A stretch of DNA of 64,000 nt, taken from contig JBFWJC010000001.1 in the NCBI GenBank assembly GCA_050253415.1, forward strand, positions 192,001 to 256,000. The letters are read 5' to 3'. How positions within the stretch are numbered: the first letter of the stretch is position 1; each line of letters opens with the position of its first letter. This document shows positions 18,830 to 29,530 of the stretch, one piece after another. The stretch comes from Pedobacter sp. Lineage in GTDB: Bacteria > Desulfobacterota > Desulfuromonadia > Desulfuromonadales > Syntrophotaleaceae. Made by a program: the position numbers and the translations under genes. The notes under the pieces were generated by a model. It had not been told where the DNA came from. It ran no database searches and worked only from the letters and a program-made list of their open reading frames with translations.

Positions 18830-21385
18830 CTACCACGGCTCCTGCAACGGTTGCTCGCCGTCCTGCAGATCCTGCGTCAGAAACGCGGTCAAGGCCTGCA
18901 TGACCTTCTCGGTGCGGCCCTTGGCCAGAGGTACATCGGGCAGGGAACGTAAAAAGATGCGTCCATAGCCCTTGTTGACCACTCGGCTGTCGAGAATCAG
19001 CACCACGCCCCGATCTTCGCGATGCCGGATCAGGCGACCGAACCCTTGCTTGAACTTGATGACGGCCTGCGGCACGGTGTATTGCATGAAAGGATCGCCC
19101 CCGGCCGCGGTTATCGCCTCGGCGCGAGCCTCCAGTACCGGTTCCGTGGGGACCTTGAACGGCAATCGGGTGATGATCACCTGCTCCAGAGCGCGTCCCG
19201 GCACATCGACCCCCTCCCAAAAGGAATCGGTAGCAAACAGCACGCTGGTCTCATCTTCGGCAAAAGTCTTTAGCAGTCGATGGCGATTGGCTTCGCCCTG
19301 GCGCAGGCAACGATAACCGCGTGCCTGCAGCACCGGCGACAGTTCGCCATGCACCTGGCGCAACAGTCCGTACGCGGTAAACAGGGCAAAGGTGCGACCA
19401 TCGGCCGCCACCACGGCGCGTTCTACCAGATCGCGAACCATGGCAGGATACCCTGCGCGTCCCGGTTCAGGCACATCGGTCGGCACCACCACCAACGCCT
19501 GACTTGCGAAATCGAACGGCGAATGGAGCAGCAATTCGCGCACCCGGTCCGCCTCGACCCGGTCAAGTCCCACGCGGCTTTTCAGATATTGAAACGAATC
19601 TCCAACCGCCAGCGTGGCGCTGGTCAGCACCACGCTGCGAAACCGGTCGTAAAGCCCTTCTTTAAGTTGGCCGGCGACCTCCAGGGGAGCCGTGCACAGG
19701 CGGGTTATCACTCCCCGTCCGCGACCTATGCGTCCCTCCACCACCTCGAACCAGGCGCAGGTGCGCTCGTCGCGAGCAATAAAAAACCTCAGGTCGCCGG
19801 CGATGCAGGCCAACCGGTCGGCAACCCCGCGAAGATCGGTCAGGGGCGAAACCAATTTGTCCGCCACCGCCTCCGGCAGCTTTTCGCTGGCTTTGAGCAG
19901 CGCTTCCAAGTCCTCTGCCAAGGTGGCACTGGCAGCTGCCAGATCCCGGATACGCTCAACGGCCGAGGGCCAGAATTCGCCGGCTGTCAGTTCCGGAACC
20001 ACCCTCCGACGCAACTCGTCCTGGCCGACACCGGTGCCGCAAGCTGCGGCCAGGTCCAGCCCTACCCCTTCGAGAGTCTGCAGAGCCTGATCGTAAAGTG
20101 CGTGACTGCCGGCCGACAAAGCCTCGATAGCTTCGTAATTGCTCCGATACAGAACATCCTCGGTATCCGGCAATTCCCGTGCCAGCAGATTGATGAAACG
20201 CGGCAGCAAACCCTTGTCCGGCTTGCGTGGGTGACGCAACTTGCCCAGTACCCGGGCAAACGCATAGCGCGTTACCTGCGAGGCGAAATAATGGGTGGCG
20301 ACGTCCTCGAGATGGTGTGCTTCATCGAGCACGATACGATCGAAGGGTGGCAAAACCGCGGCGGTACTATAATTGTCGGTCTGATGGCGCAAAGCCAGAT
20401 CCGACAACAACAGGGCGTGGTTGACCACCAGCAGATCGGCCTGCGCGGCTTGTCGACGGGCCTTATGGAAAAAACAGGCACCGTAATGATTGCACCGAAC
20501 CCGCGCACACTGATCGGCTTCGCAGCGCACCTCTTCCCACACCTCGAGGCGAGGCATAAAAGTCAACTCCTCGCGCGACCCTTCATGGGTAGCCGCCGCC
20601 CACTCCAGAACCGCAGCAAGTTCGCCACTTAATTCATCGTCGAACAACCCCGGTTCCAGACGTGCCGTCTCTGCCCGCCGTCGGCATAGATAGTTGTTGC
20701 GCCCCTTGACCAGTACCGCGCGAAATTCAAGGCCCGCAACCCGCTGCAGGAACGGCAGATCTTTACGAATCAGCTGTTCCTGCAGGTTGATGGTGTTGGT
20801 CGATACCACCACCCGCTCCTCGTTGGCCAATGCCCAGAGCAGCGCCGGTACCAGATAGGCCAGACTCTTGCCTGTACCAGTCCCTGCTTCGATGACCGCC
20901 AGTTGGCTGCGATTAAACGCCTCGCCAACCGCAAACGCCATGCGTAGCTGCTCGGGACGCTCTTCGTAGCCAGGAAGGGTTTTGGCCACCACTCCCAGGG
21001 GGCCCAGCAGGGCATCAATTTTCTCCGGTGGCAGATGTTGGGACTGACGGGGAGCAAAAGGTTCCACCACTTTATAAACATGTTCCACAGAGTTATCCAC
21101 AATCAGAAAACCAACCCCCTGGGAACCGAGTCGCGAAGCAATCTCAAGATCTGCCATCGATGGTTCCAGGCAAGCCGAAGGGTGATTGTGGAGAACGACA
21201 TCGCCATAGCGACATTCCTGCACAATGGCCGGCACCGCACTATCATTGCCACGTGCCAGCACCCGCACCTGAGTGATCCGCAGGTCACTGTCGGTGCTTC
21301 CGAGAAAAAAAACCTCCCGCCCACCAGCCTCAGTTATGGCTTGGCGCATACTGTCGATAACGGGCGTTGTGAAGGTCTTTTCCAT
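18830..21385 (-). CDS. DinG/YoaA-family Fe-S helicase with N-terminal JAB (RadC-like) domain
   Basis: N-terminal EVFF..HNHPS...PS.AD; EAGTGTGKS, NYLC and Cys cluster, DEAHH, LTSATL, FWEGVD, QGFGRLIR; likely ATG at 21385. Confidence 0.92.
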   Translation of the reverse strand: MEKTFTTPVIDSMRQAITEAGGREVFFLGSTDSDLRITQVRVLARGNDSAVPAIVQECRYGDVVLHNHPSACLEPSMADLEIASRLGSQGVGFLIVDNSVEHVYKVVEPFAPRQSQHLPPEKIDALLGPLGVVAKTLPGYEERPEQLRMAFAVGEAFNRSQLAVIEAGTGTGKSLAYLVPALLWALANEERVVVSTNTINLQEQLIRKDLPFLQRVAGLEFRAVLVKGRNNYLCRRRAETARLEPGLFDDELSGELAAVLEWAAATHEGSREELTFMPRLEVWEEVRCEADQCARVRCNHYGACFFHKARRQAAQADLLVVNHALLLSDLALRHQTDNYSTAAVLPPFDRIVLDEAHHLEDVATHYFASQVTRYAFARVLGKLRHPRKPDKGLLPRFINLLARELPDTEDVLYRSNYEAIEALSAGSHALYDQALQTLEGVGLDLAAACGTGVGQDELRRRVVPELTAGEFWPSAVERIRDLAAASATLAEDLEALLKASEKLPEAVADKLVSPLTDLRGVADRLACIAGDLRFFIARDERTCAWFEVVEGRIGRGRGVITRLCTAPLEVAGQLKEGLYDRFRSVVLTSATLAVGDSFQYLKSRVGLDRVEADRVRELLLHSPFDFASQALVVVPTDVPEPGRAGYPAMVRDLVERAVVAADGRTFALFTAYGLLRQVHGELSPVLQARGYRCLRQGEANRHRLLKTFAEDETSVLFATDSFWEGVDVPGRALEQVIITRLPFKVPTEPVLEARAEAITAAGGDPFMQYTVPQAVIKFKQGFGRLIRHREDRGVVLILDSRVVNKGYGRIFLRSLPDVPLAKGRTEKVMQALTAFLTQDLQDGEQPLQEPW

Positions 21386-21586
21386 ACCGTGCTCCCAGAA
21401 GACTGTCGAACTATTCGGTTGAAACGAAGAGTCGTACATCGCAGAACTGTTTTGGCTCCGAAGCAAAACACATCGCCGTAAAAGTGTGCCAAAAGAGTCC
21501 CTATGAACAAACATACTATTATAGGGAAGCACGTCTTAAAAGGAAAGGCTGACAAGGGGGGATAAGGGGGCAAAAAGGGATGGAGA

Positions 21587-21614
21587 TTGACAGATCGCGC
21601 CGAAATGCTACATT
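21587..21614 (+). promoter_or_regulatory. putative sigma70 promoter for doxX
   Basis: TTGACA-N16-TACATT with extended -10 TG. Confidence 0.55.
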
Positions 21615-21705
21615 GCTTAGACAACTTGCCGTGGCGAACGCTGCATGGCGTCACCGCTGACTCGGTTCCTGTCCAGACTTTCCAATTGAACACTAACGTA
21701 GGAGG

Positions 21706-22152
21706 ATGATCATGCTTCGAGGCTTGTGCGCGACCGATAACGATACTGGCAGCCTGATTTTACGGGTGATTTTGGGTGGGGTGTTTTTCCCCCATGGTGC
21801 ACAAAAAGCCCTGGCATGGTTCGGTGGCTACGGCCTGGCGCCGACTGTGGATTTTTTCAACCAGTCTTTTGGAGTGCCCGTACCGCTGGCCTACCTGGTC
21901 GTCGCGGCCGAGTTTCTCGGTGCCATAGCTCTGATCCTGGGTCTGCTGACACGTTTTGCAGCATTCGGTCTGTTTGCCGTCATGGCGGGCGCCATCTATC
22001 TGGTACACTGGCAGAACGGATTTTTCATGAACTGGGCAGGCAACCAGGCCGGCGAAGGCATCGAATACCATCTGCTGGTCATGGGCATAGCCCTGGCGCT
22101 GATGGTGCGGGGCGGCGGCCGCGCCTCCCTTGACCGGTTGCTGAGTCGTTGA
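21706..22152 (+). CDS. DoxX family membrane protein
   Basis: LRVILG..FFPHGAQK, EFLG...LILGLLTR, GEGIEY, GGGRASLD; AGGAGG RBS. Confidence 0.93.
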   Translation: MIMLRGLCATDNDTGSLILRVILGGVFFPHGAQKALAWFGGYGLAPTVDFFNQSFGVPVPLAYLVVAAEFLGAIALILGLLTRFAAFGLFAVMAGAIYLVHWQNGFFMNWAGNQAGEGIEYHLLVMGIALALMVRGGGRASLDRLLSR

Positions 22153-22170
22153 TCCGCAGTACATGGTATG

Positions 22171-22209
22171 AAAAGCCCCGCATGCCTGTAAAGGCCGCGG
22201 GGCTTTTTT
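22171..22209 (+). terminator. intrinsic terminator after doxX
   Basis: AAAAGCCCCGC...GCGGGGCTTTTTT. Confidence 0.8.
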
Positions 22210-22306
22210 GTGGATAATGGCCGGCTTGACTTGCCCCGTCCCCCCCCTTAAGATCAGAGATCGGAAGCCATCGCTTTTGCCACAGGTATCCCCAGAGGAA
22301 TGTACT

Positions 22307-22738
22307 ATGTACAGCAAACAAGTCATGGACCACTTCACCCGACCACGCAACGTCGGTTATCTTGAAAACCCCAGCGTGGCGGTTCAATATGGCGATCCCA
22401 CCTGCGGTGACTGTCTGTTGGTATTTTTGAAGATCGAGCAAGGCGTCATCCAAGACATGAAATACAAGGTAATGGGCTGCGCCGCCGCCATCGCAACCGC
22501 GTCCATCACCAGTGAAATGACTATCGGCCGCACCCTTGACGAGGCTATGGCATTGACCGAAAAACAGGTAGCTGAGGCCCTGGGCGGGCTTCCGCCGCAA
22601 AAGATGCACTGTTCCAACCTGGCGGTGGGCGCTCTTAAAGCGGCCCTGCGGGTGTATCTGGCAGGAGATCGCCCTCCCGATGCCATCGTCAGCGGGCGAG
22701 GGCACGACGCAAACCATCCTCCAGAGGAAAATCCTTGA
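22307..22738 (+). CDS. IscU/NifU_N Fe-S scaffold protein
   Basis: MYSKQVMDHF..PRNVG, CGD, GCAAAIA, LGGLPPQKMHCSNL. Confidence 0.92.
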   Translation: MYSKQVMDHFTRPRNVGYLENPSVAVQYGDPTCGDCLLVFLKIEQGVIQDMKYKVMGCAAAIATASITSEMTIGRTLDEAMALTEKQVAEALGGLPPQKMHCSNLAVGALKAALRVYLAGDRPPDAIVSGRGHDANHPPEENP

Positions 22739-23582
22739 GACTGAAAAATGTTTGCCAGGGATGTGGGTCACAGACATTGCCGGCCAGCAACATCTGCAGC
22801 TGATCGACGGTCAGAGGACAACCCGGCACAGCCTGCAGGCTGGCCAGAAGCGGCTTTACCATCCAGATCGGCTGGTGAATCTTGACCACCTTGCGGCGGT
22901 GCAGTATGCCACCGATAATATCGAGAAGTTCATCGTAAGTTACGCTTTGCCCGCCGCAACAATGAAAGGTTTCACCAGCGGCATCGGAACGACCAAGGCA
23001 GGCAACGATACTGGCGGCAACCTCCTCCACGGCTACCGGCGCCAGGCGATAACGCCCATCGCCCAACACCGGCACCACTGGCAGAGTGCGCACCATTCCG
23101 GCCAGCAAGGTGCAGAAATTATCCTCGGCACCGTACATGACCGAGGGGCGGAAGATCGTCCAATCGAGAGTTGATTTTTTAACAAGCGCTTCCGCCTGTC
23201 CCTTGCTGCGATAATAGGCGGTACGGCCGTCGATACTGGCGCCGTTGCTGCTCATCAGTACAAAACGTCTGACCTTTTGAGCCTGTGCCGCGTCAACCAT
23301 GTGCGCCGTGGCCTGACGATGCAGACGGTCAAACGTAATTCCCTGTCGCGGATACTCGCGAATAATCCCTACCAGATGTACGACGGCCTCGCATCCAGCC
23401 AAGGCCCCCTGTAAGGTCTCCGGCTGAGTCACGTCCCCGAATCGCACCTCTGTTACCCCCGGCAGAAGTTTTCCCTCGGAGCCGGATCGCACCAGGCACA
23501 CCGGCGTATGCCTGGCGGCCAGCAATTGCCGGGTGACTTCGCGACCGACAAATCCGGTTGCGCCTGTAACAAATACCTGCAT
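22689..23582 (-). CDS. NAD(P)-binding atypical SDR, complex I NDUFA9-like family
   Basis: VFVTGATGFVG, VHLVGII, Y..SK, WTIFRPSVMYG. Confidence 0.88.
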   Translation of the reverse strand: MQVFVTGATGFVGREVTRQLLAARHTPVCLVRSGSEGKLLPGVTEVRFGDVTQPETLQGALAGCEAVVHLVGIIREYPRQGITFDRLHRQATAHMVDAAQAQKVRRFVLMSSNGASIDGRTAYYRSKGQAEALVKKSTLDWTIFRPSVMYGAEDNFCTLLAGMVRTLPVVPVLGDGRYRLAPVAVEEVAASIVACLGRSDAAGETFHCCGGQSVTYDELLDIIGGILHRRKVVKIHQPIWMVKPLLASLQAVPGCPLTVDQLQMLLAGNVCDPHPWQTFFSLKDFPLEDGLRRALAR

Positions 23583-23596
23583 GAGGTCCTCCGCGC

Positions 23597-25039
23597 TTAC
23601 CCCTTAACCACCGCCAGCGGTCGCAAGCGCGCAACGATGCGACCGATGCCGGCCTGTTGCACGACCTCCACCACCTCCGAAACATCCTTATACGCCTCCG
23701 AGATTTCCTCGGCCACGGTGCCACGCTCGGCAGCCCGCAGCACAATGCCCCGTGCAGCGAGTTCGGCCTCGATATTGCGACCACGGGCCACTTTTTTGGC
23801 CGCGTGGCGCGACAACACGCGGCCCGCACCGTGGCAGGTCGAACCGAAGGTCTGCTCGAACCCACCGGCGGTTCCCACCAGCACATAAGAATAGCGCCCC
23901 ATATCGCCGGGGATCAGCACCGGCTGACCTATGGCACGATAGCACGCCGGAACTTCGGGATGGCCGGGGGGAAACGCGCGCGTGGCACCCTTGCGGTGCA
24001 CACAGAGCCGACGCCGCACCCCTTGCACCACATGATTTTCCCATTTGGCAATATTGTGGCAGACGTCATAGATAAGCGAGAGTCGCAAGGCCTCGGCGCT
24101 TTGCCCCAACACCTGTTCAAACGATTCGCGCACCCAGGCGGTAATCAGTTGCCGGTTGGCAAACGCAAAATTGGCCGCGCAGGCCATGGCGGCAAGGTAC
24201 TGTCGACCCTCCGGGCTGCCAAGCGGTGCGCAGCACAACTGCCGGTCTGGCAGCGTGATGCCATATTTGGCCGCAGCCCGCAGCATGATCCGCAAATAAT
24301 CGTCGCACACCTGATAACCGAGGCCGCGGCTGCCGGTATGGATGGTCACCGTAACCTGTCCCGGGAATAATCCAAGCACCTGCGCGATTTCCGGTTCCCG
24401 AATCTCCTCCACCATCTGCACTTCCAGAAAGTGGTTGCCTGAGCCAAGAGTCCCGAGCTGGTCGCGCCCCCGTTCCAGAGCGCGATCGGAAAGCAGTTCC
24501 GGGTCGGCGCCTTCGATACGCCCCTCAGCCTCGATATGCTGCAGATCCTGCTCGCTGCCCATCCCGCGATTCACCACCCAGCGGGCCCCCTGCTGCAGAA
24601 CCTTGCGCTCTTCCGCAACACTCAATTTAAGATCGCGTCGATGAGAACCGACCCCGGAAGGTACATTGCGAAACAGAGCATCGGCCAACCTCTGCAAGTG
24701 GGGACGAACCTGCTGCACTTCCAGATCGGAGCGCAGCAGACGCACTCCACAGTTGATATCGTAGCCGACCCCCCCGGGTGAGACGACCCCCTCCTCGGCA
24801 TCAAAGGCCGCCACCCCGCCGATAGGAAAACCATAGCCCCAATGAATGTCCGGCATGGCCAGAGACGGACCGACAATACCGGGCAAAGTCGCGACATTGC
24901 GCACCTGTTCGAGAGCCTGCTCTTTCTGCAATGCCGCCATCATGGCGCGGCTGGCAAAAACCAGGCCGTCGGTACGCATAGCCCCTTCGCGAGGGATGCG
25001 CCAGCGGCATTGATCGATCTGTTGCACTTTGACGGTCAT
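23597..25039 (-). CDS. rtcB: RNA-splicing/repair ligase RtcB (archaeal-like, archease-associated type)
   Basis: MPDIH.GYGFPIGG, GVGYDINCGVR, GTLGSGNHFLE, HTGSRG, HNIAK, HRKGAT, STCHGAGR. Confidence 0.97.
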   Translation of the reverse strand: MTVKVQQIDQCRWRIPREGAMRTDGLVFASRAMMAALQKEQALEQVRNVATLPGIVGPSLAMPDIHWGYGFPIGGVAAFDAEEGVVSPGGVGYDINCGVRLLRSDLEVQQVRPHLQRLADALFRNVPSGVGSHRRDLKLSVAEERKVLQQGARWVVNRGMGSEQDLQHIEAEGRIEGADPELLSDRALERGRDQLGTLGSGNHFLEVQMVEEIREPEIAQVLGLFPGQVTVTIHTGSRGLGYQVCDDYLRIMLRAAAKYGITLPDRQLCCAPLGSPEGRQYLAAMACAANFAFANRQLITAWVRESFEQVLGQSAEALRLSLIYDVCHNIAKWENHVVQGVRRRLCVHRKGATRAFPPGHPEVPACYRAIGQPVLIPGDMGRYSYVLVGTAGGFEQTFGSTCHGAGRVLSRHAAKKVARGRNIEAELAARGIVLRAAERGTVAEEISEAYKDVSEVVEVVQQAGIGRIVARLRPLAVVKG

Positions 25040-25119
25040 AACATCTACCTTTCATGGCCCCGTTACCATAAAGCGTCCCTGTGACCTGTACCGTTTTTCG
25101 TGTCTAGTAATTCAGGGCC

Positions 25120-25147
25120 ATTATCCGGGCTGACAAGGCTACGTCAA
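25120..25147 (-). promoter_or_regulatory. putative internal sigma70 promoter for rtcB
   Basis: TTGACG-N16-GATAAT on the - strand within the archease-rtcB gap. Confidence 0.45.
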
Positions 25148-25237
25148 CCTGGCATAACCGAGTGGTACGTTAAATGGTGGAACGCTGAAATCGCCAGAAA
25201 AGCCGGAAGAAGACATCTGAAATAATGGCATAGATCA

Positions 25238-25717
25238 CTAGAGATCAAGATAAACCCGCGCACGCCAGAGGCCCTGGCGACAGCTGACCATAAGATGGTG
25301 GTAGGTGGCTGCTTTGATTTCCCTTTGAGGGTCTCCGGTCAGCGGCACCACCGCCAACCTGGCCTCAAGCGAGCCGGGTTTCATATCTGTCAAGGTGATA
25401 TCTTGCGGCCACATGCCCTTGGTCTGAATCAGATAAAGCAACTCGTTAAGCCACACGACCAGCAGTTCCTCCACATCGCCTGCGGCAACCTCAAGCGTTA
25501 AAACGCGAATCGGGGTCATACTATCAGCGCTGCCAGCCAACACCGCCAACAACCCTTTTGCCGCCTGCACAAACAACTCCTCACAGCTTGCAGCCTGGGC
25601 TTCGATACCCATATCGGCGGTGTGCTCCAAAAGCCGAAAGGCGGCCGCGCCGCCTTTCTTTTTAACCGGCTTGGATCCCGCCTCTGGAAATTGTCGGGCA
25701 TTTTGGTCCGCATTCAT
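25238..25717 (-). CDS. archease
   Basis: EHTADMGI, LLVVWLNELLY, EIKAATYH, C-terminal YLDL; ATG 4 nt after the upstream stop. Confidence 0.95.
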   Translation of the reverse strand: MNADQNARQFPEAGSKPVKKKGGAAAFRLLEHTADMGIEAQAASCEELFVQAAKGLLAVLAGSADSMTPIRVLTLEVAAGDVEELLVVWLNELLYLIQTKGMWPQDITLTDMKPGSLEARLAVVPLTGDPQREIKAATYHHLMVSCRQGLWRARVYLDL

Positions 25718-25721
25718 AGAG

Positions 25722-26240
25722 TCATTCTTCGCGCTGCCAAGTGACGCGGCAGATGGCATGATCATCCGTCCAGACCACCTTAAGCTCGCCTTGGTGGGAC
25801 TTATGGAGGGCGCGGCCGAGGTGTTCGGCGAGTTTTTCTTCGGTCGTTTCGATCACCAGATCCTGGCCTTCTCGCTCCATTCGGATAATCTGTTCCAGCG
25901 GATTTTTGGCCCTGGCCTTGGTCACCTCATTCCTTAGAATGTTACGGATTTCCTCTTCGTGCGCCCACAGATAGGCGCCACGCAGGGTTACATAGCCTTC
26001 TGCGTAACCATCCTCGATCTTACGGCAACCCGGGCAAAGTTGTCTGGTAACCTTCACATCATCGGAAAGATGCTTAAACGCCTCCACATCGAGGTACCAG
26101 CGCTTGTTACGATAAACCGCCTGGCAACCGGTGCAGATCGTAGGTTCCGGCAGCCCCTGATCCATAATATAGGGATCAGAGCTGGTTTTGCAGCGTCCAC
26201 GTTTGTCACTGATGCCGAACTTTCCGCTCTCTTTTTGCAT
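25722..26240 (-). CDS. BCAM0308-family Zn-ribbon protein
   Basis: DPY, CTGC.AVY...RW, CPGCRKI, NPLEQI, TTEEKLA..LGRAL, RVTW.R motifs. Confidence 0.8.
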   Translation of the reverse strand: MQKESGKFGISDKRGRCKTSSDPYIMDQGLPEPTICTGCQAVYRNKRWYLDVEAFKHLSDDVKVTRQLCPGCRKIEDGYAEGYVTLRGAYLWAHEEEIRNILRNEVTKARAKNPLEQIIRMEREGQDLVIETTEEKLAEHLGRALHKSHQGELKVVWTDDHAICRVTWQREE

Positions 26241-26286
26241 ACTTGAACCCCTTTCCCGAGGAATTTTTAGGGCCTTCCTACTATTG

Positions 26287-26295
26287 ATTATAGCA
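26287..26295 (-). promoter_or_regulatory. extended -10 promoter element upstream of the BCAM0308-archease-rtcB cluster
   Basis: TGCTATAAT about 46 nt upstream of the ATG. Confidence 0.55.
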
Positions 26296-26428
26296 TCAGG
26301 AATGGTATTTGGGGGGGACCGAAGGTGACGGAATGGTTTGCAGGAGTAATTTGTAAGAAGTTGAAGGGGGGTTACAAAACCCGATAGTTGTCAGCTGAGA
26401 ACCTTGCAGTCATAATCATGCATGCATA

Positions 26429-26800
26429 TCACCATGACAGGCTACGGGACACCGTAGTCCACAGCAGATTGGCAACAACCACAGAAAGTCCCGCGGCCAG
26501 AGCCAGAGGCGGGGCTTTAAGGGGTCCGATCAGCACAAAAATGGCCCCGGCCAAACACAATAGTCTGACCAGCGTACCACCTTGAAAGGCCAATCCTGAT
26601 TTTTGACCCGGAGTCAAAAGTAACCGTTTGAGGGAACGATGCAACGCATGGAAACTGGCGATGACCACCAATCCACCCCCCAGCACTCCCACTGTAACCG
26701 GAAGCGATTTCCAAAGCAGACTACCCAAGACCATCACACACAGAATCAACCAGTTGCGCCGAGCCATTTCCCGTATCAGCTGGTCATCCCCTGTCGTCAT
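26429..26800 (-). CDS. atpI: ATP synthase subunit I (AtpI-like, 4 TM)
   Basis: Four hydrophobic segments, GVLGGGL, LVRL, LAAGLSVVV; overlaps atpZ. Confidence 0.8.
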   Translation of the reverse strand: MTTGDDQLIREMARRNWLILCVMVLGSLLWKSLPVTVGVLGGGLVVIASFHALHRSLKRLLLTPGQKSGLAFQGGTLVRLLCLAGAIFVLIGPLKAPPLALAAGLSVVVANLLWTTVSRSLSW

Positions 26801-27032
26801 GCTCTTCCTCCCCCTGGCGGCGCAATTCGCGGCGGGTAAGGATAAAAATATTGCGGAATCCGGCGGCAATTCCGAAGCCGAGGAACAACAGCGTCAGCCA
26901 GGGAGAAGTCCCCAGCCAACGATCGAGATAGTACCCCATAAACAACCCGATAAGGGTCGAAGCCACCAGAGAAATACCGACTCCGGAAAGAAAACCGATG
27001 GATTTGATCAGTTGTTGTCTGTTTTCCGCCAT
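26784..27032 (-). CDS. atpZ: AtpZ/AtpI (ATPase gene 1) family protein
   Basis: GISLV...IGLFMGYYLDRWLGTSPW...FL.FGIAAGF.N. Confidence 0.9.
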   Translation of the reverse strand: MAENRQQLIKSIGFLSGVGISLVASTLIGLFMGYYLDRWLGTSPWLTLLFLGFGIAAGFRNIFILTRRELRRQGEEEHDDRG

Positions 27033-27200
27033 AGTTACCAAAATCCAAGAGACAAGGACGTCGTCCGAATATCTGCTTCCCCCGCAGCCCTTATCTCAAA
27101 AACCCGCCGGGTACGCATTCGAATGATCTATTCAAACCCGTATAACCGAGAGCGTGCTAACGGAAGTTAAAAGGTTTTCTCCCCCAAGAAAATCGTCAAG

Positions 27201-28166
27201 TCATCCCTTAAATAAACGGATAAAATGGGCAAAAATCCCTTGATCGTCATCGGCCACTTCCTGCTCTTTCATAATCTTAAGGGCTTCAAAGGTCGTGCGT
27301 CTTTGATGATAGGGGCGCTCGGCAGTGAGTGCTTCATAAATATCGGCAATACGGCAAATCCGCGCATAAGGATGGATATCCGATCCCATCTTCCCGTGTG
27401 GATAGCCGGTACCATTGTCGCGTTCATGATGCTGCAGAGTAATGGTAAGCGCTTCATCGGTAATGATCCCGTTTTCACTGAGGATGTTGTAACCTTCCTC
27501 AACATGACCATTGACCACCTGGCGTTCTTCCGGCGTCAATTGTCCCGGCTTGTTGATAATCTCAATGGGAATGCGACACTTGCCAAGATCGTGCAGAAAA
27601 AAACCGGTGCCAAGGTTATGCATATCGTGCGAGCGATCCTGGCCGAATAATAATCGCGCCAGTGCCACGCCGAAAATACCGACATTGGTAGAATGAACGT
27701 AGGTGGCATGATCGAAAGCAGTCAATCGTACCAGATATTTGGTTGCTTCTTCATTGTTTACGATGAGATCGACCGTCGGAACGATAACATCGCAGGCCTG
27801 CTTGATAAAGGGACCGCGAGGGTCATCAAAGGCCCGACGCATGACATCGCGACAGGCCGCCTGCACGGCTTTGGCTTTGACAGAAGCCTCAACATTCGGA
27901 TTATGAACAAGGTCGTCCAGCCTGGAGCGTAACATCTGGCTGTAAAAAGCTGCATCCTCGACGCGTACATACAGGTGTTCGGTACCATAAAACTGCAGAC
28001 GATCGATAGCAGGACGGCCTAAAATACCATGTTGAGCGACAAACAGAACGTACTCACCACTCCGGTTACATCGAAACAAATCACACGGAGCTTTTTGGAT
28101 AAAATGAAGGGAGTCGGTACTTACGGAAAATAACTCCTCGCCGCTGATATTTTCGGCCAGATCCAT
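27201..28166 (-). CDS. HD-GYP cyclic-dinucleotide phosphodiesterase
   Basis: TYVHS.NV, HDLGK, HHERDNGTGYP, ADIYEALTAERPY. Confidence 0.93.
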   Translation of the reverse strand: MDLAENISGEELFSVSTDSLHFIQKAPCDLFRCNRSGEYVLFVAQHGILGRPAIDRLQFYGTEHLYVRVEDAAFYSQMLRSRLDDLVHNPNVEASVKAKAVQAACRDVMRRAFDDPRGPFIKQACDVIVPTVDLIVNNEEATKYLVRLTAFDHATYVHSTNVGIFGVALARLLFGQDRSHDMHNLGTGFFLHDLGKCRIPIEIINKPGQLTPEERQVVNGHVEEGYNILSENGIITDEALTITLQHHERDNGTGYPHGKMGSDIHPYARICRIADIYEALTAERPYHQRRTTFEALKIMKEQEVADDDQGIFAHFIRLFKG

Positions 28167-28209
28167 ACGCTCCCCTGTAACAGGTATATTCCAAAAGGGC
28201 CTCGCAGTC

Positions 28210-28227
28210 GATCCCCCGCGGGGGATC
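28210..28227. repeat. perfect 18-bp palindrome at the aminotransferase 3' end
   Basis: GATCCCCCGCGGGGGATC, flanked by CAGTC/GACTG. Confidence 0.75.
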
Positions 28228-29530
28228 AGGACTGCAGATATGCTGTAATGCTGTCAGCGATCTTTTGGAAAATACCGGTAAATTCTTTTTCGTCGCGCTC
28301 CAACAATGTGATGCGGAAACCCTGTTCCTTGGTGCAGAAGGAAGATAAAGGGACCACACAGATACCGGTCGAAGCAAGTAGATAGTACACGAAACGCTTA
28401 TCCAGAGATACCCCCGGTTGATTGACCATACTCTCAACCAGTGTACGAACCTTGGTGTTTTCGATAGGGAGCGTCTGTTGATGTGTAAGCAATTCGGTCT
28501 TGATTACGACACTCATATAAAAAGCACCGTTGGTACGATTGACTTTGATACCAGGGACTTCTTTTAGAACCTCGTAAGCGATATTGGAATTGTTTTCGTA
28601 ACGCGCTCTCCGCTGATCGAGATACGCCGGATATTCCGGGTGTTCAAGGATGCGGGGTATCGCTTTTTGGGGCAATGTAGTGGAACAGACCTCGACCATC
28701 TTGGCGTTCAGGATACTCTGTACATACCGTTTAAAAACAGGATCCCGGTCGGCATTATAGACTTCGATCCAGCCGCAGCGTGCTCCGGGCCAGGGCACTT
28801 CCTTGCTGATGCCACGCAGAGCCATTCCAGGAAGATCGCCGATGAGATCGGATAACGGCTTCGTGGATTGTCCATTATAAACAATATTCAGGTAGACCTC
28901 GTCACAGATCACAAACAGATCGTACTCCCGGGCAATGGCGATCATCTCCCGCAAAATACGCTCCGGATAGACCGACCCGGTCGGATTATCGGGATTGATA
29001 ATCAGTATGCCGGAAATAGCCGGGTTATACTTCACCGACAACCGCAAATCGTCCAGGTCCGGATACCAGTTGTTATCGGGGTCCAAACGGTAGGAAATCG
29101 GCCGCTGACCGGCATGAGCTGCTTCGGCCGATGAGTGGGTGGAATAGGTCGGCGATGGTCCAATAACCCGCGCCTCGCGGCGCAGAAATCCGTAAACCTT
29201 CTGAATGGCGTCGCCAAGGCCGTTGAAAAAGAGAATATCTTCCGCCGTGATTTGCGCCTTGCCGCGCTTATTTGTCCGTTCCGCCAGAAACTCGCGCGTC
29301 TCCAACACTCCCTTGGTCGGGCAATAACCGTAAGTACAATCCTCCATGACCAATTCGGCAACCAGTTGTTTCATCCACTTGGGGATTTTTTCTCCCTTCG
29401 CTACCGGATCACCGATATTTTCCATATTGGTCTTGATACCCATACGCTGGAGAGTCTCGGCAATCTCCACGATCGCCCGAATCTCATAGGTCAACTCACC
29501 TGCGCCTATATGTACGATATCGTTTCTCAT
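28226..29530 (-). CDS. PLP-dependent class I aminotransferase (AlaA-like, probable alanine transaminase)
   Basis: LTYEIR, NIGDP, INPDNPTG, DEVY, ISKEVPWPGARCGW (PLP lysine); substrate specificity is inferred. Confidence 0.85.
   Translation of the reverse strand: MRNDIVHIGAGELTYEIRAIVEIAETLQRMGIKTNMENIGDPVAKGEKIPKWMKQLVAELVMEDCTYGYCPTKGVLETREFLAERTNKRGKAQITAEDILFFNGLGDAIQKVYGFLRREARVIGPSPTYSTHSSAEAAHAGQRPISYRLDPDNNWYPDLDDLRLSVKYNPAISGILIINPDNPTGSVYPERILREMIAIAREYDLFVICDEVYLNIVYNGQSTKPLSDLIGDLPGMALRGISKEVPWPGARCGWIEVYNADRDPVFKRYVQSILNAKMVEVCSTTLPQKAIPRILEHPEYPAYLDQRRARYENNSNIAYEVLKEVPGIKVNRTNGAFYMSVVIKTELLTHQQTLPIENTKVRTLVESMVNQPGVSLDKRFVYYLLASTGICVVPLSSFCTKEQGFRITLLERDEKEFTGIFQKIADSITAYLQS

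Follow-up and report, generated by a model that had tools for sequence, protein, structure and literature searches.

Archease-RtcB operons are well known, and the in-cell targets of bacterial RtcB are debated. To our knowledge, a ribosome-directed helper is known for one RtcB subtype only, and that helper is PrfH. The operon described here lies in a window of 64,000 nucleotides (the whole stretch of DNA that was analysed), and it raised the question of why an RNA-repair operon of this kind should be led by a gene for a small Zn-ribbon protein of the BCAM0308 family. The sequence-only reading of the window had suggested that this protein may be a third component, which targets the ligase to damaged rRNA or tRNA. 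By its named relatives, the order to which the window belongs is Desulfuromonadales.

Inspection of the locus showed an archease-RtcB RNA-repair operon of four genes, all on the minus strand and downstream of the element TGCTATAAT (Table 1). The gene order from the 5' end was the BCAM0308-family Zn-ribbon gene, archease, RtcB of the Thermus/Pyrococcus type and an NDUFA9-like SDR. In an alignment, an element of the form TGnTAtAaT was found at equal distance from the ATG in nine relatives from the genus and family; TGCTATAAT was not among the sites from a simple sigma-70 scan, because it is without a good -35. The co-orientation of the genes behind this element, as described from the sequence alone, was therefore borne out, and the two spacings given with it agreed with the coordinates. 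The Zn-ribbon TGA occupied 25724-25722 and the archease ATG followed 4 nt on, at 25717, while the median of this gap in 29 relatives was 9 nt; the SDR ATG stood 14 nt past the rtcB stop. The genes flanking the operon were assigned by Pfam as AtpI/AtpZ-like, HD-domain, NifU and DoxX. As had also been stated, no RtcA, RtcR or PrfH gene adjoined the operon, and an Rfam scan of positions 21000-29000 gave zero family matches, Y RNA included. The Zn-ribbon, archease and RtcB genes were present in one copy each in the genome. As regards co-transcription, three metagenome runs contained less than 0.06 of the words, on short contigs that were mostly less than 95% alike and spanned no gene junction.

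Table 1. Positions of the operon and its elements in the window
Feature	Position	Strand	Remarks
Extended -10 promoter-like element TGCTATAAT	26295..26287	-	end 47 nt before Zn-ribbon ATG
BCAM0308-family Zn-ribbon gene, 172 aa	26240..25722	-	NF040826 and Pfam NMD3
Archease, 159 aa	25717..25238	-	PF01951
Archease-rtcB spacer, 198 nt	25040..25237	-	promoter-like site inside
RtcB RNA ligase, 480 aa	25039..23597	-	PF01139
NDUFA9-like atypical SDR, 297 aa	23582..22689	-	NAD_binding_10 and Epimerase matches

The archease matched its Pfam profile with 108.6 bits over positions 1-136, i.e. the whole profile. Its HTAD motif and the C-terminal D158 were invariant in an alignment of 30 orthologues, in which the Lys-rich N-terminal extension was genus-specific and carried by same-genus loci only. 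RtcB scored 596.5 bits over positions 1-426 of its profile. Among solved structures, T. thermophilus TTHA1785 was closest with 631.8 bits, P. horikoshii RtcB came next with 604.5 bits and human RTCB after it; residues 1-480 could be aligned end to end with residues 1-481 of the 1uc2 chain, in line with the archaeal type proposed earlier. The catalytic motifs, which had been called intact, were indeed so: D94, C97, H203, H234, H328 and H403 were invariant in the 30 orthologues, and we take these, following the P. horikoshii literature, to be the metal-binding residues and the guanylylated His. Judged by its sequence, this RtcB is of the archease-dependent type found in Thermus, Pyrococcus and human. 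It is established by homology that the archease should activate a GTP/Mn-dependent RtcB, which would join 2',3'-cyclic phosphate or 3'-phosphate ends to 5'-OH ends. The abstract of Desai et al. 2014 (PMC3973293) describes such an operon and reports that archease activates RtcB.

The 198-nt spacer between archease and rtcB, which the sequence-only reading does not mention, is a strain-level insertion. The spacers at this position in 29 relatives measured 8-156 nt with a median of 27; a long insert was otherwise found in one locus only (L084), with unrelated sequence, and the spacer sequence of the window occurred once in the genome. The promoter-like site inside it was TTGACG-16-GATAAT, at 25147..25120. 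The idea of a structured RNA in the spacer was rejected, as there was no Rfam match and the folding z was -0.16 against shuffles. For the last gene of the operon, the top sequence relatives in the PDB were NDUFA9/39-kDa complex I subunits. It followed RtcB in 33 of the 38 linked loci of one set (one of the five misses was cut by a contig end) and also in L004 and L005. We know of no tie between this SDR and RNA repair, and the operon therefore carries at least one apparent passenger.

The lead protein was assigned to NCBIfam NF040826 (lxa_BCAM0308), where its 149.5 bits exceed the curated equivalog cut-off of 100. A tail that is basic and disordered is followed in it by a single 4-Cys Zn ribbon and an eL22-like alpha/beta domain (residues ∼80-172). 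Among 69 diverse family members, the cysteine pairs C36-x2-C39 and C69-x2-C72 were invariant, and P114, T132/T133, G142, R165, W168 and R170 were nearly so. The protein is small and easily expressed. The name-giving gene belongs to the lxa locus of Burkholderia, which is activated by low oxygen according to passages of PMC3721108, and BCAM0308 is tabulated with large expression values in a part of PMC4981469. No description of the function of the family was found in the literature searched; Burroughs and Aravind 2016 (NAR 44:8525), a survey of genes associated with RtcB, may list it.

The sequence-only reading had noted that the layout of the protein recalls the N-terminus of NMD3. It was found that the Pfam profile NMD3 (PF04981) matched with 37.7 bits (cut-off 24.9), covering profile positions 126-218 of 243 only, and that 54 of the 69 diverse family members matched it too. 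An AF2 model of the protein (pLDDT 91) had as its best Foldseek match Nmd3 (5t62_V, E 1.1e-3), so that the comparison with NMD3 proposed in the sequence-only reading gave a match. By VIA, in which 48,161 chains were compared, the three best matches were all Nmd3 (Z of 10.5, 9.3 and 9.2; ∼84 residues, rmsd 2.3-2.5 Å); in the best of these, 5h4p_w (rmsd 2.3 Å, 84 residues), residues 80-172 of the model corresponded to residues 155-250 of Nmd3. Comparison of the family profile with PDB sequences at E <= 1 gave no NMD3 chain and chance zinc-finger matches only. On the basis of the Pfam score over the cut-off together with the fold match, the Zn-ribbon protein is a true NMD3 homologue. The likeness to NMD3 was therefore real but had been placed in the wrong part, since the matched region is the eL22-like P-site domain and not the N-terminus.

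NMD3 comprises two zinc sites and eL31-like, eL22-like, SH3 and OB domains, as mapped in passages of PMC6579518; passages of that paper and of PMC5536393 locate its eL22-like domain at the P site and the peptidyl-transferase centre (PTC) of the large subunit. In both proteins a zinc-binding element precedes the eL22-like domain. The full architecture, with its two treble-clef zinc sites, was not found in the Zn-ribbon protein, which has one 4-Cys site in its 172 residues and is without the eL31-like, SH3 and OB domains. The two also differ in distribution: NMD3 is a eukaryotic and archaeal export and maturation factor of the 60S/50S subunit, whereas the Zn-ribbon family is bacterial and patchily distributed. 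We infer that the protein is a cut-down bacterial relative of NMD3, with one zinc ribbon and the eL22-like domain. Because domains and a zinc site are missing, the binding mode of NMD3 need not transfer to it.

In the window's order, archease was directly downstream of the family gene in 64 of 82 distinct loci, window included, and 64 of the 70 genes of the window's own clade stood in front of archease-RtcB. This adjacency was kept in more than 20 family-level groups, among which identity fell to ∼49% (Zn-ribbon protein) and ∼40% (archease). It is unlikely, in our view, that the Zn-ribbon protein acts as a third subunit or adaptor in physical contact with archease-activated RtcB and delivers this ligase to a defined broken RNA, either rRNA in the ribosome or tRNA, in the manner of PrfH. 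Several observations nevertheless argue for it: the lead gene and archease are co-directional and tightly spaced here and in the relatives, the clade has kept this order, and the abstracts of PMC13166195 and PMC9223846 provide a precedent in PrfH, a release-factor-like protein that helps RtcB2 repair colicin-E3-cut ribosomes. Such an adaptor is at odds with the frequent occurrence of archease-RtcB without a Zn-ribbon gene. In the window's phylum, archease was present in 318 of 401 genomes and the BCAM0308 family in 116. A hand count within the order gave 13 genomes with archease but without the family gene, and eight with the family gene but without archease. Six window-type Zn-ribbon genes were unlinked to archease-RtcB; one of these was in a genome that had no archease and whose sole RtcB was short and of the E. 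coli type. Since archease-RtcB and the Zn-ribbon gene each occur alone in relatives, the protein is not an obligate third component. What stands of that idea is that the gene stably leads the operon across a whole order.

In a quick tree, from which L121, L109 and L030 (broken or short genes) had been left out, all linked Zn-ribbon genes grouped together; their clade (SH-aLRT 98) comprised 69 rows, of which 63 were linked and 6 free. The linkage across the order is thus of single origin and counts as one evolutionary event plus retention. The gene order could accordingly be an inherited accident, i.e. one ancestral rearrangement that was kept through a common promoter with no common function, and the terminal SDR and the rest of the phylum are consistent with this. 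In 38 sampled family loci of the window's phylum outside the order, linkage to archease-RtcB was found in none, and the family had no recurrent neighbour. The most frequent neighbour there was present in 5 of 40 clustered loci, two loci of the order included, and such neighbours were metabolic genes without an RNA theme; AIR-synthase-like, radical SAM, FBPase and YtxH genes were among them, and neither these nor the others exceeded 5 of the 40 loci. Nevertheless, we regard an accident as quite unlikely, because the adjacency has survived the sequence divergence given above and because archease-RtcB was met again beside the family in a second phylum.

In a Burkholderiales-like order of this second phylum, 61 of 301 genomes carried the family. 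The neighbours of the Zn-ribbon gene were compared at 66 loci of this order: they included HPF (PF02482) at 18 loci, a CBS-pair protein at 20, an MJ1316 RNA-cyclic-end domain at three, and archease with RtcB at three. The three archease-RtcB-linked loci had three different arrangements, all unlike that of the window: one was archease-RtcB-MJ1316-ZnR on a single strand (L170), and in another a CBS-HPF-ZnR operon was divergent from archease-RtcB (L176). These further arrangements also count in favour of an adaptor. By estimate rather than computation, well under one such case would be expected by chance, and HPF and MJ1316, the other recurrent partners, likewise concern ribosomes and broken RNA ends; both points weigh against an accident. 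The sequence-only reading's linkage of the family to archease-RtcB therefore held in the window's order and reappeared in 3 of 66 loci of the second phylum, but it failed in the remainder of the first phylum and also in 80 metagenome loci of the Burkholderiales-like clade (0/80), and this scarcity speaks against an adaptor as well.

HPF was co-directional with the Zn-ribbon gene in 16 of the 18 loci, as read from the coordinates. A Pfam check confirmed all 14 neighbours examined, of which 10 were HPF, four of these with a cold-shock domain over the cut-off. The 80 metagenome loci had HPF in 21 and CBS in 30; the loci with HPF from these two sources, second order and metagenomes, are interrelated rather than independent. 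HPF adjacency was found in 1 of 40 loci in the window's phylum, where a Zn-ribbon gene was followed by an HPF-CSD gene (L041, Desulfobacterota). HPF was not beside the operon in the window's order, and the sole HPF match of the genome was on another contig. The neighbourhood link of the BCAM0308 family to HPF is new here. As a recurrent partner elsewhere, HPF points to the ribosome as the target, and to targeting of the ligase only indirectly.

Beyond the Burkholderiales-like order, no more than 7 of 401 genomes in the second phylum had a family gene, three of them new, and these three had no HPF, CBS, MJ1316 or archease-RtcB neighbours within 1.5 kb. A search with one protein of the 'other type' gave 16 close 'Deltaproteobacteria' loci. 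L139, where the match was weak and only 37 residues long, was set aside, and the other 15 had no RtcB, archease or HPF. When a protein collection was searched with the family profile, only Desulfuromonadales-type proteins were among the best 120 matches. The taxonomic range of the family is known here from a protein atlas, in which Nitrospirota and Acidobacteriota clusters are named, and from 967 representative clusters at E <= 1e-3. A small basic zinc-ribbon protein encoded by the first gene of an operon might also be a nucleic-acid-binding regulator of that operon, for example a translational autorepressor, rather than a ribosome factor. In most lineages, however, the family gene stands by itself and its surroundings vary, which is a misfit for an operon-specific regulator; moreover, the conserved portion is the eL22-like domain common to NMD3. 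We consider such a regulator highly improbable.

The reading that we prefer, and hold to be quite possible though somewhat short of probable, is that of a stress operon which combines RNA repair with a ribosome-directed protein, the Zn-ribbon protein binding the large subunit under stress and having been recruited by one lineage. The BCAM0308 family may well represent a stress protein that binds ribosomes and has not been described before, because it is related to NMD3 and stands beside hibernation genes elsewhere; ribosome binding is thus proposed from one homologous domain and the gene neighbours. The Zn-ribbon protein would bind the intersubunit face of the 50S subunit at translation shutdown or after cleavage of rRNA or tRNA, and the bound protein would hold or shield this site much as hibernation factors do. 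A single clade of Zn-ribbon genes, located at the base of the window's order, may then have been recruited as the lead gene of an archease-rtcB-SDR operon, so that ribosome shielding and RNA rejoining would be produced together. The protein might also target the ligase directly. A wider proposal, which we put forward tentatively and think somewhat unlikely, is that the BCAM0308 family forms a new and widespread class of bacterial ribosome-binding stress factors derived from an NMD3 core. On large subunits that are idle or damaged, they would plug the P site and the PTC. They would act with non-canonical HPF in some lineages, and in Desulfuromonadales they would present nicked rRNA or P-site tRNA to archease-activated RtcB.

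The locus is a concrete candidate for a second ribosome-directed helper of RtcB besides PrfH. If the Zn-ribbon protein binds ribosomes, the few bacterial hibernation factors would be joined by a further family. This family would, like Balon, have been borrowed from the archaeo-eukaryotic translation apparatus, and the shielding of ribosomes would be tied to the rejoining of RNA. If it does not bind ribosomes, the locus would be a repair operon of the usual kind, in which two of the genes are passengers.

Several known systems resemble this operon in part. The archease-RtcB operon of P. horikoshii and T. thermophilus, as described in the abstract of PMC3973293, shares with it the archease directly upstream, the Thermus/Pyrococcus-like RtcB of 480 aa and the lack of RtcA and RtcR. 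The operon of the window differs in being led by a BCAM0308-family gene and in usually ending with the NDUFA9-like SDR, and among the loci sampled the window's order alone had the four genes in this form. The operon is not of the enterobacterial Rtc type, in which rtcBA is under RtcR/sigma-54, as neither rtcA nor rtcR is beside the rtcB of the window.

On the side of ribosome hibernation, bacterial aeRF1 homologues were predicted to bind ribosomes from their adjacency to HPF in passages of PMC6514570. For Balon, ribosome binding by cryo-EM and genes that also adjoin RaiA and RtcB are reported in passages of PMC10901736, and HPF-Csp and HPF-CBS chimeras are placed beside non-canonical hibernation factors in parts of bioRxiv 10.1101/2025.11.04.686544. 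Going by these passages, the Zn-ribbon family is likewise a bacterial offshoot of an archaeo-eukaryotic translation factor, with genes beside HPF/RaiA and sometimes RtcB, and with induction by low oxygen in some species in both cases. However, the folds are unrelated, and Balon occupies the A site whereas the Zn-ribbon protein would, by analogy, occupy the P site and PTC; ribosome binding is demonstrated for Balon and predicted for the Zn-ribbon protein. The RtcB2-PrfH pair, going by the abstracts cited above, has a helper of another family, an RtcB of another subtype and no archease. Nevertheless, RtcB is encoded in both systems with a small protein derived from a translation factor, which in the window is a putative helper and would also be directed to the ribosome.

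The operon comprised four head-to-tail genes whose coordinates, strand and family scores agreed with the sequence-only reading of co-oriented genes behind a promoter-like element, and the short gap between the first two genes was read directly in the sequence. Nine relatives from the genus and family, when aligned, showed a TGnTAtAaT element at equal distance from the Zn-ribbon start codon. Because this position was kept, TGCTATAAT is a plausible promoter candidate for all four genes. The Zn-ribbon, archease and rtcB genes were each present in one copy in the genome searched. The closest solved relatives of the SDR were the NDUFA9/39-kDa complex I subunits, in line with its earlier description as NDUFA9-like; as also claimed, rtcA, rtcR and prfH did not adjoin the operon, and no Rfam family was matched in 21000-29000. 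Directly upstream, AtpZ-like (ATPase_gene1) and AtpI-like genes (26429-27041, minus strand) were not followed by atpB or atpE, and the pair appears to be the orphan head of an ATP synthase operon.

Features of the archease-RtcB operon in the window
Feature	Coordinates	Strand	Description
Promoter-like element TGCTATAAT	26295..26287	minus	alignment with nine genus and family relatives
Zn-ribbon gene	26240..25722	minus	172 aa, two CxxC pairs; NF040826 (lxa_BCAM0308), 149.5 bits, cut-off 100
Archease	25717..25238	minus	PF01951, 108.6 bits; start 4 nt past Zn-ribbon stop codon
Archease-rtcB spacer	25040-25237	minus	198 nt, promoter-like TTGACG-16-GATAAT
RtcB	25039..23597	minus	PF01139, 596.5 bits
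SDR	23582..22689	minus	start 14 nt past rtcB stop

In RtcB, whose catalytic motifs were previously noted as intact, six Asp, Cys and His positions (94, 97, 203, 234, 328 and 403) were invariant among 30 orthologues; we take these residues to have active-site roles. Among relatives of solved structure, RtcB was closest to the enzymes of Thermus thermophilus and Pyrococcus horikoshii, with human RTCB next, the kind described as archease-dependent by Desai et al. 2014 (PMC3973293). The archease-rtcB spacer measured 8-156 nt in 29 relatives (median 27). A long insert was found in one same-genus locus (L084) among four, with unrelated sequence but similar size and the same place, and the window insert occurred once in its own genome. 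The 198-nt spacer, which the sequence-only reading had not mentioned, is read as a recent strain-level insertion outside the system. A structured RNA in the spacer was rejected, as there was no Rfam match and folding was no better than that of shuffles. A 10-bp perfect GC-rich hairpin (GAAAGGCGGC/GCCGCCTTTC, 25636-25658), marked on the plus strand by the terminator scan, lay within the codons of a Lys-rich N-terminal archease extension common to same-genus loci only.

The Zn-ribbon protein matched the Pfam NMD3 model with 37.7 bits (cut-off 24.9), as did 54 of 69 diverse family members, and relatives in public sources were already labelled 'Nmd3 N-terminal domain-containing'. Its AlphaFold model (69 sequences, mean pLDDT 91) showed a basic tail that is disordered, followed by a zinc ribbon and an alpha/beta domain. 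The structural comparison proposed earlier gave yeast Nmd3 as the top Foldseek match in the PDB (E 1.1e-3), and three Nmd3 chains ranked first among 48,161 representative chains (Z of 10.5, 9.3 and 9.2), with 84 residues superposed at an rmsd of 2.3-2.5 A and model residues 80-172 lying on Nmd3 155-250. A family profile searched against PDB sequences reached no NMD3 chain. Judged by the Pfam profile and the predicted structure, the protein is homologous to NMD3, so the likeness suggested from the sequence was genuine, but it was misplaced: the earlier reading had put it in the N-terminal layout, whereas Nmd3 155-250 is the eL22-like domain, which is described as occupying the P site and reaching the peptidyl-transferase centre of the large subunit (Kargas et al. 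2019, PMC6579518; Patchett et al. 2017, PMC5536393). The eL31-like, SH3 and OB domains and one of NMD3's two zinc sites are missing from the bacterial protein, which is therefore not an NMD3 orthologue.

In the Desulfobacterota sample of 401 genomes, the family was found in 116 and archease in 318. Neighbourhoods of 10 kb were fetched around family genes in 40 of the 116 genomes, one gene for each of 40 groups at family level, selected by available flank and independently of the result. Archease, RtcB and SDR accompanied the family gene at two loci, both of the window's order; a third had, 4.4 kb away and on the opposite strand, a partial RtcB gene, and neither archease nor RtcB was seen within the fetched 10 kb of the other 37. 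No other neighbour was present in more than five of the 40, and those that recurred were metabolic genes.

Within the order, 80 of 121 genomes contained the family and 85 archease; by a hand count from two tables, 72 had both, 8 the family only, 13 archease only and 28 neither. All 82 distinct family loci were covered, the window included. Archease was immediately downstream in 64, followed by RtcB wherever the contig extended, and SDR came after RtcB in 33 of the 38 linked loci of one batch. The 18 unlinked loci held 12 distant paralogues (<=37% identity to the window protein) and six window-type genes. Three genes, broken or short, were omitted from the quick maximum-likelihood tree, which comprised 117 family proteins. 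It placed all 63 linked and the six unlinked window-type rows in one clade (SH-aLRT 98), and the order's remaining copies with class- and phylum-level relatives. Since the linked rows fall in one clade, the linkage has a single origin, at the base of the order or close to it. With a few losses, it was retained down to ~49% identity in the Zn-ribbon protein and ~40% in archease. That this gene order is simply an inherited accident seems improbable to us, and regulation of the operon by the Zn-ribbon protein highly improbable.

Archease was absent from one genome whose window-type gene is unlinked, and its sole RtcB was short and of E. coli type; in one complete genome with archease-RtcB no family gene was detected (all but 8,000 bases searched). 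Genome G418 carried one archease-linked window-type gene and one distant paralogue, and G481 two distant paralogues; occurring together in one genome, the two clades coexist and are probably not interchangeable. At L025 (G076:C1, 4998-8405) the family match stood at the end of an open frame of 1135-1195 aa, the whole of which gave no Pfam match, and at L059 (G470:C13) at the end of a 712-aa frame, with the archease match split in two. These long frames may be fusions, frameshifts or stop-free GC-rich sequence.

A second order, in another phylum, was entered via a weak match in a Rhodocyclaceae metagenome-assembled genome and is taken to be Burkholderiales-like, the home of the name-giving gene. 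The family occurred in 61 of 301 genomes (7 of 401 in the rest of that phylum), and all 66 distinct loci were covered by exemplar-protein searches, 30 with 1.5 kb and 36 with 3.5 kb of flank. The ribosome hibernation factor HPF (Ribosomal_S30AE) was a neighbour at 18 loci, a CBS-pair protein at 20, and an MJ1316 'RNA cyclic group end recognition' domain at three. Pfam upheld all 14 neighbours submitted (10 HPF, plus CBS and MJ1316 proteins), and four of the 10 HPF had a cold-shock domain over the cut-off. Writing ZnR for the family gene, the orders were CBS-HPF-ZnR, MJ1316-HPF-ZnR, ZnR-CBS-HPF and ZnR-HPF, besides one convergent and one divergent; from the coordinates, HPF was co-directional with ZnR in 16 of 18. 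Many family-adjacent HPF were S30AE plus cold-shock chimeras, and others were short and stood behind a separate CBS-pair protein (L141, L172, L178, L180 and L041 for the two kinds). One Desulfobacterota locus had an HPF-cold-shock-domain gene directly after the family gene. Of 80 loci from metagenomes in the same clade, 21 had HPF, 30 CBS and none RtcB or archease; being akin to the genome sample, these loci are not independent of it.

Archease and RtcB neighboured the family gene at three of the 66 loci, in arrangements that matched neither each other nor the window: a single-strand archease-RtcB-MJ1316-ZnR-(C39-like peptidase)-(RimK-like ATP-grasp N-terminal domain) run at L170 (G701:C257, 403-4370), a CBS-HPF-ZnR operon divergent from archease-RtcB at L176, and convergent ZnR and archease-RtcB 1.8 kb apart at L178. 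The C39-like/RLAN pair also followed the family gene in L144-L146. Linkage held in the window's order and recurred here; it was seen at none of the 38 phylum loci outside the order. The recurrences with MJ1316 and RtcB, the tight gene spacing and the retention across the whole order would suit a Zn-ribbon protein that physically directs the RtcB ligase, as first envisaged; we regard this as rather unlikely, since many archease-RtcB operons have no family gene.

Our tentative reading, held at somewhat less than even chances, is that in stressed or dormant cells the family would bind the ribosome's large subunit, and that the archease-RtcB operon would have recruited one clade. This is the most economical account, given the precedents among HPF neighbours, the membership of the name-giving gene in the lxa locus, which low oxygen activates (PMC3721108, PMC4981469), and the P-site position of NMD3's homologous domain. 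The repair core is already known; databases name and annotate the Zn-ribbon family, though it is uncharacterised. In the literature searched, the BCAM0308 locus tag appeared in one paper, as a table entry. No paper joining RtcB, archease and NMD3 was found, and the RtcB-neighbourhood survey of Burroughs and Aravind 2016, outside this search, may mention the family; nor did the literature searched tie NMD3 to bacterial hibernation in a relevant way or discuss COG1499, PF04981 or 'Nmd3-like' in bacteria. It is the family-wide link to hibernation genes that gives a specific, cheap experiment its worth.

The pairs of CBS-pair protein and short HPF resemble the archaeal HPF-CBS fusion HibA, a factor in which HPF is fused to a CBS module, and a 2025 preprint (bioRxiv 10.1101/2025.11.04.686544) describes chimeras in which HPF is joined to Csp or CBS domains, encoded beside non-canonical hibernation factors. 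From HPF neighbourhoods, bacterial aeRF1 homologues were predicted to bind ribosomes in shutdown (Burroughs and Aravind 2019, PMC6514570), and ribosome binding was shown for Balon, whose gene neighbours include RaiA most often and also RtcB (Helena-Bueno et al. 2024, PMC10901736). We regard Balon/aeRF1 as a direct precedent, since in both cases HPF is paired with a bacterial derivative of a translation factor from the archaeo-eukaryotic line.
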